Of a stretch of DNA of 64,000 nt, positions 24,412-25,805 are shown piece by piece (positions within the stretch are counted from its first letter, which is position 1; each line of letters opens with the position of its first letter). Origin of the DNA: Deltaproteobacteria bacterium GWA2_45_12 (GTDB lineage: Bacteria; UBA10199); assembly GCA_001797365.1 (NCBI GenBank), contig MGPH01000030.1, positions 1,963 through 65,962 of the forward strand, in the 5' to 3' direction. The notes beneath the pieces were generated by a model. It was given only the letters and a program-made list of their open reading frames with translations. It made no database searches and had not been told where the DNA came from. A program made the position numbers and the translations under genes.

Positions 24412-24553
24412 CCCGTCTTACTTCCCCCTTTTTTAAAGGGGGAAAGTGCCAAGCCCCCAATCAAAAGTTAAATTAATAATTTTAGCAATATTGCTCATAT
24501 ATAAATATAATAAATTCATATATTTATAATTTACTATAATAGATATTGCAAAT

Positions 24554-24991
24554 ATGCTAAAAATGTCTCATAGTTCTTTCATGTCTTTAGCCCTTCATCA
24601 AAATGCTTTAAAAATAAGTGCTGCAAGTTCTCACGCTTTGGGAAAAGTGTTTTGGAATTTGATGGATCATTGGCAAACCGATCCCAAGGAACAGGCTTTG
24701 TTATTGGGAGTAAAATATCACGTGACCAAGCTAAAAGATTGGAAGACCAAACAAATTATTCCCGAAGATCCCGACAAATTCCAACGTGTGGGGCATCTGG
24801 CAGCCATTCACAAAAATCTGAAAATTCTTTTTCCGTACAATCTGCGTGCGGCTTATGATTTTATGAAAACACCGCAAGATTTTCTTTTTAACGGCAAAAG
24901 CCCCATGCAAATTATTGAAGAGGGGGGAGAGATCAATTCGTTTACCACCATTGCCGCTATTCGCAGGCGCCTGGATCAGGCGAGAACTTAG
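24554..24991 (+). CDS. Xre-like antitoxin with a DUF2384-type (MbcA/ParS) C-terminal toxin-binding domain
   Basis: 145 aa; HTH-like EQALLLGVKYHVTKLKDW; C-terminal FNGKSPMQIIEEGGEINSFTTIAAIRRRLDQ resembles the DUF2384 signature; immediately upstream of a RES-domain ORF. Confidence 0.55.
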   Translation: MLKMSHSSFMSLALHQNALKISAASSHALGKVFWNLMDHWQTDPKEQALLLGVKYHVTKLKDWKTKQIIPEDPDKFQRVGHLAAIHKNLKILFPYNLRAAYDFMKTPQDFLFNGKSPMQIIEEGGEINSFTTIAAIRRRLDQART

Positions 24992-25055
24992 GCCGGGCCA
25001 TAACTCCCCCTCGCCCCCTCTTAATTTAAGAGGGGGTTGGGGGGAGTTAATCAAT

Positions 25056-25805
25056 ATGTTTCCTTTTCCTGTATTTCATTCCGTTCCTTACAAAAAAAAA
25101 GTCTTCCGTAACATTTTCACCAATGCCACGGGGCAGCATATTCACGCCGATGTTTGCGATCCGGAGGATTATTCTTTGGTCGAAACGCTCATTGCGCTCA
25201 CCTCAGGAATCGACCACAATCAGCCGCAGTTTCACCGCCCGTTTCAATATGCGGTTATCGAGGACGATCAAATCCTTCAGGTATTCGAAAGGGAACATTG
25301 GAATTATGGCCGCTTTGGAGATGGAAAATCCTATGGTGTCTGGTATGCGGCTGAAGATGAAATCACCAGTGTCACAGAGGCCTGTTGGGTGGCTTACCAA
25401 TTAGCCAAAGACAATGTGCTTCCCAAGGGCGAGGTTTACCACAGTGAGCGTGCCATGTATCTTGCTGATGTTGACTCAAAGGCGTCCCTTGACCTTACCA
25501 AAGAAAAAACACTCTTTAATCAGCTTGTTCATCCTTCTGATTACAAATTTTGCCAAGCGTTAGGAAAAAAGATTGTTGAAAGTAAAATAGAAGTTTTACG
25601 TACCCTGTCAGCGCGAAAAAAGGGAGGCATTTGTAATCCCATTTTTTCTCCCACCCCTATCAAAAATCCCCAACGGATCTATTACCTTAAAATTAATGTT
25701 TACCCGGATGGAGAAATTGGAGTGGATTCTTCCCAAGAACTTATCCGAAATTTGTTTCAGGCCACAGATTTACAATCTCCTTATAAGGACGGAAATCTTC
25801 TGTAA
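25056..25805 (+). CDS. RES-domain toxin (MbcT/ParT-like NAD+-targeting family)
   Basis: 249 aa from the ATG at 25056. NYGRFGDGKSYGVWYAAEDEITSVTEACWV fits the RES R...E...S core (GRF..G..VLY.A......E). The ORF-track start at 24915 is a TTG upstream that reads through a GC hairpin. Confidence 0.55.
   Translation: MFPFPVFHSVPYKKKVFRNIFTNATGQHIHADVCDPEDYSLVETLIALTSGIDHNQPQFHRPFQYAVIEDDQILQVFEREHWNYGRFGDGKSYGVWYAAEDEITSVTEACWVAYQLAKDNVLPKGEVYHSERAMYLADVDSKASLDLTKEKTLFNQLVHPSDYKFCQALGKKIVESKIEVLRTLSARKKGGICNPIFSPTPIKNPQRIYYLKINVYPDGEIGVDSSQELIRNLFQATDLQSPYKDGNLL

Follow-up and report, generated by a model that had tools for sequence, protein, structure and literature searches.

Organization of the locus

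The 64-kb stretch of DNA analyzed here (the window) carries, between aspS and the sigma-54-driven mlaD-purH unit, a two-gene toxin-antitoxin cassette of the RES-Xre class, whose features are listed in Table 1. Both genes of the module are intact and its basic classification is ordinary; the locus extends the RES-Xre modules by an environmental NatT-like subfamily. The antitoxin gene comes first and the toxin gene is adjacent on the same strand, an order found in 15 of the 15 family loci examined, and one conserved promoter lies 5' of the resulting two-gene operon. A short hairpin beyond the aspS stop codon constitutes the left edge of the inserted cassette; since it lacks a T-tail, it is not a canonical terminator. 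The CCCCCT...AGGGGG core of this hairpin recurs elsewhere in the window.

Table 1. Features of the toxin-antitoxin cassette and its left boundary, in window positions (strand "." marks features given without orientation).
Feature	Position	Strand	Remarks
aspS stop codon	24409-24411		Just 5' of the cassette
Hairpin TTCCCCCTTT-TTT-AAAGGGGGAA	24422-24444	+	Just after the aspS stop; perfect 10-nt inverted repeat
AT-rich promoter/operator region of the operon	24459-24568	+	85.5% AT; aligns across 15 loci
Distal operator candidate, perfect palindrome AGCAATATTGCT	24484-24495	.	Core GCA-N4-TGC at 24485-24494
Proximal operator candidate TTGCAAATATGCT	24546-24558	.	Core GCA-N4-TGC at 24548-24557
Predicted -10 hexamer CATAGT	24569-24574	+	17 nt after TTGCAA, 6 nt before ATG 24581
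Antitoxin (NatR / Xre-type)	24581-24991	+	Probably 136 aa; maximal ORF 24554-24991 (145 aa)
Palindromic element (GC-rich hairpin)	25001-25049	.	Between antitoxin stop and toxin start; 24-nt arms
Shine-Dalgarno-like GGAG of the toxin gene	25043-25046	+	9 nt before ATG 25056; in the 3' arm of the palindromic element
RES-domain toxin (NatT-like, with Flap)	25056-25805	+	249 aa

The toxin

The original prediction, made from the sequence of this locus, had proposed a type II pair of the RES/Xre class, and this assignment was supported by positive profile searches (PF08808 and PF09722) and by predicted folds resembling the solved structures of RES toxins and of their Xre antitoxins. The 249-aa ORF described with a RES-type motif is present and contains NYGRFGDGKSYGVWYAAED...TEAC. 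Among the RES domain profiles (PF08808 / COG5654), PF08808 matched residues 85-204 of the toxin with 45.4 bits (E = 1.1e-11; gathering score 23.2), and a precomputed PF08808 match was found in all 19 close toxin homologues. In a 73-sequence alignment reaching down to ~20% identity, R18, R86, Y97, E108 and S185 were the only invariant columns. The predicted fold is the ADP-ribosyltransferase-like RES fold, as in solved RES toxins, and a Flap of helix-loop-helix form separates strand beta-1 from the RES core.

Approximately 1,100 cluster representatives of the environmental NatT-like subfamily are detectable with a profile; distant relatives are present on plasmids, and phage genomes yielded no relatives. 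Compared singly with the PDB, neither the toxin nor the antitoxin sequence gave a meaningful match, and NCBIfam gave no match for either protein at E <= 1. A 296-aa ORF starting at TTG 24915 was also considered as the toxin and rejected, as homologues begin at the position of ATG 25056.

The antitoxin

The upstream gene had been described as encoding a 145-aa HTH protein with a DUF2384-like C-terminus; the domain was recovered, and the length, which is that of the maximal ORF, is probably over-extended. Judging from the alignment of relatives, translation probably starts at ATG 24581: the start codon of the homologues aligns with this ATG and the leader DNA ahead of it is conserved, and ATGs 24554 and 24563 fall within non-coding operator/leader sequence conserved in relatives. 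ATG 24554 was discarded as the start: it is part of the conserved operator, and its counterpart in one family locus (L001) is out of frame. PF09722 (Xre_MbcA_ParS_C, formerly DUF2384) matched residues 89-143 with E = 5e-4 and 20.4 bits, a score below the curated cut-off of 24.5 bits, and was matched by 20 of the 20 members of the antitoxin family alignment (best E = 3.8e-6).

The AF2 model of the antitoxin, of moderate confidence (pLDDT 72.8), found its best structural match in the NatR chains 8qnq_A/B (TM 0.59 / 0.66-0.73, probability 1.0, Foldseek E ~3e-3), followed by the antitoxin VPA0769, and weakly resembles Xre-family HTH regulators. The model, together with an LLGV-turn motif, suggests an HTH in this protein; an HTH profile match was not obtained for it. 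The antitoxin alignment contains 43 invariant positions, among them the C-terminal RRRLDQxR, and the invariant R144 adjoins the C-terminus. When compared with the PDB, the family profile yielded no credible relative by sequence, its match to a LOV photoreceptor (E = 0.026) being taken as chance, and a metagenome scan with the antitoxin alignment recovered only six loci.

Promoter and operator region

The promoter/operator region is the most AT-rich 110-bp segment of the entire window. An AT content above 85% had been attributed to positions 24440-24553, which measure 78%; the figure does apply to the core listed in Table 1 and to 24460-24553 (87%). In eight family loci with an overall GC of 42-55%, the equivalent upstream region has 54-85% AT over 110 bp and 65-80% over 160 bp. 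Since this AT-rich DNA is the module's own conserved promoter/operator, it does not by itself mark the cassette as foreign; of the earlier suggestion that the AT-rich spacer is consistent with a horizontally acquired cassette, the insertion stands, and AT-richness alone is no sign of it.

In an alignment of 15 family loci anchored on the proximal palindrome, GCA-N4-TGC is exact at the equivalent position in every locus, with invariant flanking half-sites and a variable central 4 nt. A second GCA-N4-TGC lies 62-64 bp 5' of it, exact in 12 of the 15 loci and with one mismatch in three; in the cassette studied here the distance is exactly 63 bp. There are only 11 copies of the motif in the 64-kb window. 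The predicted -35 hexamer TTGCAA (24546-24551), which reads the same in 12/15 loci, shares nucleotides with the proximal palindrome, and a -10-like hexamer, mostly GATAAT, follows 16-18 nt past the -35 in 14/15. The start codon lies 5-7 nt past the -10 in nine of the 15, which implies a leaderless antitoxin mRNA; by this spacing, the mRNA of the present antitoxin is probably leaderless. The promoter called by a scan, TTAGCA-18-TATAAT (24482-24511), was not adopted because, unlike TTGCAA-N17/18-GATAAT, it is not conserved in register; there may be a second promoter at this position. The two palindromes, as spaced in the sequence, would fit two HTH dimers per predicted 4:2 complex.

Palindromic element between the two genes

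A GC-rich hairpin had been noticed between the two ORFs; the string then quoted lies at 25004-25046, and the full inverted repeat is longer (25001-25024 / 25026-25049), with arms that are 88% complementary. Its RNA folds at -44 kcal/mol (z = -5.7), and none of 200 shuffles was as stable. In the minimum-free-energy fold and in the centroid fold alike, the GGAG of the toxin gene is base-paired, and it would be sequestered in vivo. The hairpin was rejected as an intrinsic terminator, as no T-tract follows it on either strand and a terminator scan made no call.

The resulting 64-nt spacer between the genes is found only in this locus among the family loci examined, the hairpin being absent from the other 11, where the gene pairs overlap or lie <=15 nt apart. 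The element shows 86% identity over 36 nt with positions 4265-4300 of a relative's sequence (L007), where the copy is a 16-codon in-frame insert in lpdA, as judged against solved LpdA structures. The encoded peptide NSPxPPLxLRGG is common to the inserts of three LpdA orthologues; the 13 other orthologues in the same alignment do not have it, and two of these carry a shorter, unrelated insert at the site. The pattern of the element is TAACTCNCCCTNGCCCCC...AAGAGGGGG, and the window copy reads NSPSPPLNLRGG in the frame of the toxin. From these comparisons, we regard the hairpin as a separate palindromic element inserted between the genes. No second copy was found in the 64-kb window and no target-site duplication is evident at the element. 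Matches of 14 nt to a hairpin arm in Planctomycetota aspS loci were dismissed as one chance match repeated among homologous loci.

Insertion of the cassette and its relatives

The claim that the cassette was inserted after aspS was upheld by the finding of aspS-mlaD-purH with the cassette missing in a related genome (L008), an empty site that supports insertion, and by the different gene neighbourhood of the family cassette in every other lineage. At the same aspS-proximal place, L007 carries a PIN-domain toxin-antitoxin pair. Most family loci lie among housekeeping genes, and three members (L037, L039 and L048) adjoin type I-C CRISPR-Cas and WYL genes. A second, independent contig from a metagenome shows the same arrangement as the window, and a toxin with 99% identity was found elsewhere.

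Comparison with characterized systems

The MbcT/MbcA- and ParT/ParS-like class originally proposed holds as regards RES-Xre membership, and the nearest characterized relative is instead the Flap-carrying NatR-NatT (NatRT; PA1029-PA1030 of Pseudomonas aeruginosa; PDB 8qnl / 8qnq; PMC11535050), the best structural match for both cassette proteins. Both systems are antitoxin-first bicistrons, with an HTH plus Xre/MbcA/ParS-C antitoxin ending in an arginine-rich C-terminal helix, and a RES toxin of ~250 aa bearing the Flap at the same place; identity to NatT is only ~20%. Residues were mapped onto NatT from profile alignments (chain numbering equals native + 13, checked on seven residues). The NatT catalytic and phosphate-binding residues R82, Y93, E104, Y162, S184 and R186 are all conserved, as R86, Y97, E108, Y163, S185 and R187, and toxin R18 probably corresponds to NatT R23, by position and invariance rather than from a displayed alignment. 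In NatT, the Flap residues E26, D38, E42 and E47 contact the antitoxin (PMC11535050); acidic residues D38, E42 and E47 correspond here to D35, D38 and E43, and E26 falls outside the aligned stretch. A phosphate pocket at the Flap-antitoxin interface is formed by NatT K54, Y66, Y74 and E104 with NatR R70 and R119 (PMC11535050). With Y66 and E104 kept as Y65 and E108, both invariant, and K54 and Y74 changed to S50 and R79, this pocket is only partly conserved. NatT Y108 is also replaced (V112), and N193 has no conserved family counterpart. Furthermore, NatRT is part of the P. aeruginosa core genome; the present cassette varies in location, and a close relative lacks it. The promoter of the cassette differs in having two clear palindromes 63 bp apart and a probably leaderless mRNA, and its two genes are separated by the inserted hairpin element.

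The MbcA-MbcT pair of Mycobacterium tuberculosis (Rv1990c-Rv1989c; PDB 6fkg; PMC6436930) shares with the cassette the RES fold, the R-E-S triad and the NAD+-binding Arg and Tyr; MbcT R27, R47, Y58, E69 and S126 correspond to toxin R18, R86, Y97, E108 and S185. In MbcT, the triad is R47-E69-S126, R27 and Y58 are essential (PMC6436930), and the C-terminus of the antitoxin blocks the active-site cleft; NAD+ phosphorolysis is the predicted shared chemistry. The ParS-ParT pair of Sphingobium (PDB 6d0h) and the Xre-RES pair of Pseudomonas putida (PDB 9r35; PMC12204516) belong to the same RES and Xre families. NatRT forms a 4:2 complex with two DNA-binding dimers, and the P. putida complex, likewise 4:2 with two such dimers, binds a palindrome in its own promoter, with a second site suspected (PMC12204516), to which the two-palindrome layout described here is well suited.

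Proposed mechanism and alternative explanations

Integrating these findings, we consider it highly probable that the locus is a type II toxin-antitoxin module on the chromosome, RES-Xre in class and with the Flap-bearing NatR-NatT architecture, inserted between aspS and mlaD-purH and acting as follows. The RES protein, predicted to be an NAD+ (probably also NADP+) phosphorylase, would cleave the nicotinamide-ribose bond of NAD+ with phosphate, yielding ADP-ribose-1''-phosphate and nicotinamide, and the depletion of the cofactor would arrest growth. The 136-aa antitoxin would bind the toxin through the acidic helix-loop-helix Flap and plug its active-site cleft with the arginine-rich C-terminal helix (RRRLDQART). 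In a 4:2 antitoxin:toxin hexamer, two HTH dimers would occupy the two GCA-N4-TGC palindromes, 63 bp or six helical turns apart; as the proximal palindrome overlaps the -35 box, we propose that the complex represses its own promoter, from which a probably leaderless antitoxin mRNA would be made. The two genes abut or overlap in all relatives, which implies translational coupling. The 49-nt palindromic element between the genes would supply the only Shine-Dalgarno sequence of the toxin and, since this sequence is locked in the hairpin, one would expect strong damping or gating of toxin translation.

Because ParT has the same fold and is an ADP-ribosyltransferase, the chemistry is unreadable from the fold alone; a module of the same architecture whose toxin would, like ParT, ADP-ribosylate a protein, for example phosphoribosyl pyrophosphate synthetase, with no NAD+ depletion, seems to us very unlikely nevertheless. 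Only slightly less improbable is that the hairpin is not mobile and represents a regulatory RNA of the operon itself, either a transcription attenuator or an RNase processing site setting the antitoxin:toxin ratio. A stem-loop of such high stability, located precisely between the cistrons, would suit such a role, but the hairpin is missing from every other family locus examined, is not followed by a T-tract and has a homologous palindrome in-frame inside the lpdA of relatives, and Rfam returned only sub-threshold microRNA look-alikes on it (searched over 24300-26450). If the hairpin is indeed an inserted element, it could also have silenced the module, uncoupling the toxin gene and burying its ribosome-binding site, so that the toxin is not made and the pair is decaying. 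The 64-nt spacer unique to this locus and the GGAG held within the -44 kcal/mol stem point in this direction, as does the consideration that a ribosome that stops at 24989-24991 would melt no more than the first few pairs of the stem. We nonetheless find silencing unlikely, in view of the intact ORFs with all catalytic and invariant residues present, the identical arrangement on the independent contig and the 99%-identical toxin; moreover, the Shine-Dalgarno sequence that comes with the element is a good one and correctly spaced (9 nt), a feature also compatible with gated expression.

A further alternative concerns the biological role rather than the mechanism, and is compatible with the NAD+-phosphorylase module favoured above: the pair may serve mainly in abortive infection (anti-phage) or in the stabilization of mobile elements, instead of being a growth-arrest/persistence module. 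We hold this to be doubtful, though the least improbable of the alternatives. It draws on the members adjoining type I-C CRISPR-Cas and WYL genes, on the distant relatives on plasmids and on the other toxin-antitoxin pair at the same aspS-proximal site in L007, against which stand the lack of matches in phage genomes, the housekeeping genes around most family loci and the PADLOC output, with no credible defence model and a single spurious sub-threshold match to Cas1_IIIa (E = 0.005).

NAD+-destroying RES-Xre modules are tied to persistence and cell death in pathogens. In the present family, a comparison of sequences is enough to read the promoter architecture (two operators, a fixed six-turn spacing, the -35 overlap and the probably leaderless antitoxin), making this locus a simple system for how 4:2 toxin-antitoxin complexes bind two DNA sites, and the insertion of the palindromic element amounts to a natural experiment on how the translation of toxin and antitoxin is coupled.

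As a tentative reading, somewhat less probable than its opposite, the hairpin may be a copy of a small palindromic element whose family, from an uncultured lineage of groundwater "Deltaproteobacteria", is so far undescribed. It would be able to sit in-frame in essential genes (lpdA); here it would split a translationally coupled NatRT-type pair and place the only ribosome-binding site of the toxin in a highly stable stem. If true, one selfish element gates or silences another. On this reading, the 63-bp spacing of the two palindromes, with the proximal one on the -35 box and a leaderless antitoxin mRNA, would also argue, more clearly than any comparative evidence to date, that two operators are bridged when 4:2 RES-Xre complexes repress. 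In-frame insertion into genes is known from the Rickettsia palindromic elements and from comparable small palindromic repeats or MITEs, and the present element hints at in-frame palindromic elements outside Rickettsia. As in that group, a short palindromic unit occurs at unrelated sites, an in-frame insert is tolerated in a conserved enzyme (LpdA) and the open frame encodes a shared peptide; in contrast to the Rickettsia elements, the hairpin element is unrelated in sequence, much shorter (~49 nt) and GC-rich, with only two insertion sites documented.

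The gene pair and its family

The two co-directional genes downstream of aspS are a genuine type II toxin-antitoxin module of the RES-Xre class, with the NatR-NatT (NatRT) architecture known from P. aeruginosa, ORF A corresponding to the Xre-type antitoxin and ORF T to the predicted toxin, and add a member to an already known kind of module. The arrangement anticipated in the original prediction, i.e., two ORFs and a hairpin after aspS, was present with small numerical corrections only (see table). The RES assignment of ORF T was borne out by Pfam (PF08808, 45.4 bits, cut-off 23.2), as was the DUF2384-like C-terminus of ORF A, which matched Xre_MbcA_ParS_C (PF09722, formerly DUF2384; E = 5e-4) at 20.4 bits, slightly below the 24.5 cut-off, with all 20 aligned homologues matching the same profile at E < 0.01 (best 3.8e-6). 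NCBIfam and PADLOC yielded no useful match for the pair. In database searches, the toxin had 19 close homologues at 37-66% identity and the antitoxin 42 at 58-81%; most of them come from 'Deltaproteobacteria' MAGs of groundwater and sediment. One homologous pair is labeled by NCBI as 'RES family NAD+ phosphorylase' and 'DUF2384 domain-containing protein'. Further, a toxin profile search among 1.84 billion cluster representatives identified, at E <= 1e-3, 1,101 relatives. Most are 225-265 aa long, with an alignment that begins near profile position 9, and thus have the long N-terminal part in common.

Features of the toxin-antitoxin locus and related elements (window coordinates unless a contig is named)
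Feature	Position	Remarks
(C)AAATCCCCCTTnnTCCCCCTTTTTTAAAGGGGGAT repeats	20080-20108, 20675-20703, 53874-53902, 58022-58050, 61252-61278, 61386-61414	six copies
aspS stop codon	24409-24411	upstream of both ORFs
Distal palindrome core, GCA-N4-TGC	24485-24494	candidate operator
Predicted -35 hexamer, TTGCAA	24546-24551	good -35; proximal palindrome embedded in it
Proximal palindrome core, GCA-N4-TGC	24548-24557	candidate operator
ORF A	24554-24991	145 aa as maximal ORF
Predicted -10 hexamer, CATAGT	24569-24574	GATAAT in most other loci
Inverted repeat	25001-25024 / 25026-25049	24-nt arms, 88% complementary
Shine-Dalgarno-like GGAG	25043-25046	9 nt before toxin ATG; paired in stem
ORF T	25056-25805	249 aa
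Sigma-54-type promoter, TGGCAT-N5-TTGCT	25980-25995	upstream of mlaD; TGGCAC-N5-TTGCT in L008
Conserved non-coding element, ~65 nt	~26052-26117	3' of the promoter; promoter and element at ~7912-8015 in L008
CRISPR-Cas- or WYL-adjoining family loci	L037 5911-10717; L039 4148-8984; L048 3725-4726	

Relationship to NatT and NatR

Single-sequence searches of the PDB returned no match; the close-family toxin profile matched solely NatT of P. aeruginosa (8qnl_C / 8qnq_C, E = 5e-6), and a 73-sequence profile reached E = 2e-15, aligning chain residues 48-221 with most of the Flap included. Foldseek comparison of the AF2 toxin model (pLDDT 81.9) also pointed to NatT (E = 6e-13, TM 0.67, 235 columns), followed by MbcT. 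Hence, the RES/Xre class proposed at the outset held, with NatRT rather than MbcT/MbcA or ParT/ParS as the closest relative by profile and by structure.

Chain numbering in 8qnl_C equals native NatT numbering plus 13, as confirmed on seven residues named in PMC11535050. In native numbering, NatT R82, Y93, E104, Y162, S184 and R186 correspond to R86, Y97, E108, Y163, S185 and R187 of ORF T. The only invariant columns among the 73 toxin relatives are R18, R86, Y97, E108 and S185, with R187, T104 and R132 almost invariant; by position, R18 is the counterpart of NatT R23 and MbcT R27. MbcT requires the corresponding R27, R47 and Y58, and its R-E-S motif is completed by E69 and S126 (PMC6436930). 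The acidic Flap residues D38, E42 and E47 of NatT align with D35, D38 and E43 of ORF T, whereas Y108, K54 and Y74 are replaced by V112, S50 and R79, and N193 lacks a conserved counterpart in the family. NatT and MbcT both act as NAD+ phosphorylases, with ADP-ribose-1''-phosphate as a product (PMC11535050, PMC6436930), and NatT degrades NADP+ as well (PMC11535050); an enzymatic activity is predicted for ORF T.

The antitoxin model (pLDDT 72.8) best matched NatR chains (TM 0.59 / 0.66-0.73, probability 1.0) and then antitoxin VPA0769. NatR and MbcA each plug the active site of their toxin with the C-terminal helix (PMC11535050, PMC6436930). Among the 43 invariant positions of the antitoxin family are those of a C-terminal RRRLDQxR helix. 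The antitoxin was always more conserved than the toxin (e.g., 80% vs 66% and 71% vs 52% identity). This is unusual, as in typical type II systems the toxin is expected to be the more conserved partner; one possible reason is the multiple constraints imposed by contacts with DNA, the dimer, the Flap and the active site. Across the family alignments, identity to the window proteins ranged over 65-81% for the antitoxin and 48-66% for the toxin.

The AT-rich spacer as predicted promoter and operator

The AT-rich spacer was located at 24459-24568 (85.5% AT), the richest of all 110-bp windows in the 64 kb; the value of >85% originally given for 24440-24553 was not reproduced (78%). Nor is this DNA simply a mark of foreign origin, since upstream regions of 15 family loci, anchored on the antitoxin gene, revealed a conserved candidate two-operator promoter travelling with the cassette. 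An exact GCA-N4-TGC palindrome lies near the start codon in all 15, and a second one 62-64 bp upstream is exact in 12 and carries one mismatch in the other three, the spacing being exactly 63 bp in nine; half-sites are invariant and the four central bases variable. This motif occurs just 11 times in the 64-kb window. A -10-like hexamer follows the -35 by 16-18 nt in 14/15 loci, and in nine, including the window, the start codon stands 5-7 nt past the -10.

The spacer is thus the predicted promoter and operator of the operon. Complexes of the RES-Xre class assemble as 4:2 hexamers that carry two HTH dimers, NatRT binds DNA only as the hexamer, and a second operator has been suspected for P. putida Xre-RES (PMC12204516). 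The spacing of the two palindromes, six helical turns, agrees well with such a hexamer, and the same stoichiometry and DNA binding are predicted here.

This conserved geometry also bears on the antitoxin start. The ATGs at 24554 and 24563 were rejected, as they lie within non-coding operator/leader DNA; in the family locus L001, the equivalent of the window's upstream ATG is out of frame. Judging from the nucleotide comparison, the antitoxin probably starts at ATG 24581, giving the 136 aa common to most homologues, on an mRNA that is probably leaderless, which would account for the lack of a Shine-Dalgarno sequence.

A palindromic element between the two genes

The predicted GC-rich hairpin exists within the 64-nt gap between the genes (-44 kcal/mol, z = -5.7, equaled by 0/200 shuffles), but as a separate inserted element that is missing from 11 other family loci, where the genes overlap or lie <= 15 nt apart (in L049, an annotated 47-nt gap shrinks to 6 nt with the obvious ATG as start). 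The 64-nt spacer was seen only in the window and in L005, an independent metagenome contig with identical arrangement. In L007, a MAG contig whose AspS is 77% identical, a GC-rich palindrome 86% identical to the hairpin over 36 nt (-30 kcal/mol, z = -4.4) lies inside the dihydrolipoyl dehydrogenase gene lpdA (4265-4312), where, compared with solved LpdA structures, it adds 16 codons in frame. The peptide NSP(L/R/H)PPL(R/N/K)LRGGE occupies the same site in three LpdA orthologues (P0211, P0212 and P0214), within in-frame inserts (NSPxPPLxLRGGE...) of 16-21 residues; the other 13 in the alignment lack it, two of them with a shorter, unrelated insert there. In the toxin reading frame, the window copy encodes NSPSPPLNLRGG. 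Given the in-frame homologue in lpdA and the absence from family loci, the hairpin appears to be an inserted copy of a small palindromic element family present at two or more unrelated sites. It recalls the Rickettsia palindromic elements. No second copy was found in the 64-kb window.

The element supplies the toxin's only Shine-Dalgarno-like sequence; since this GGAG is paired in the stem, toxin translation would be damped or gated relative to the overlap-coupled relatives.

Separately, the (C)AAATCCCCCTTnnTCCCCCTTTTTTAAAGGGGGAT repeats form three inverted pairs, with separations of ~160 bp, 620 bp and 4.2 kb, and some copies have flanking similarity of > 80 nt in common. CCCCCT-N(2-30)-AGGGGG gave 13 matches against 0.27 expected. 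A hairpin 3' of aspS (24422-24444) has the same core, and another genome has a similar unit in its valS-nadC interval (L035 8529-8556). Possible identities of these repeats are REP-like elements, MITE-like elements or terminators specific to the lineage.

Acquisition at the aspS site and genomic context

Insertion after aspS, as originally proposed, is supported by the related contig L008 (AspS 73% identical), in which aspS is directly followed by mlaD and purH and the pair is absent. L008 and the window share the sigma-54-type promoter and conserved element upstream of mlaD, which puts the right end of the cassette near 25980. This element (TTTTTCCACCCCAACGGTA.AGG.GGTTCGG...CTGGACCTCCT) ends in a stem and T-run, had no match in Rfam, and could be a small RNA or leader. 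Directly after aspS, L007 encodes another toxin-antitoxin pair, a DUF6364 protein and a PIN-domain protein (3181-3898; PF01850, E = 1.3e-14), which suggests a recurrent landing site for toxin-antitoxin cassettes in this lineage, and relative L006 has a convergent gene at this position. Elsewhere, neighbourhoods of family members are unrelated to one another. With the empty site in L008 and the other contents in L007 and L006, this indicates that the cassette is variably located and was acquired at the aspS site. Distant relatives were found on plasmids and none in phage genomes.

Within one or two genes of family toxins lie nadC, in the valS-nadC context (L035 8584-9507, L036 9670-10512), and a convergent nadA (L049 2408-3331); these two independent contexts may reflect coincidence or a functional link with NAD homeostasis. 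Other members (L037, L039 and L048) adjoin type I-C CRISPR-Cas genes (Cas3, Cas5d, Csd1, Cas7) or a WYL regulator with a Cas3-like helicase, and these neighbourhoods are defence-island-like.
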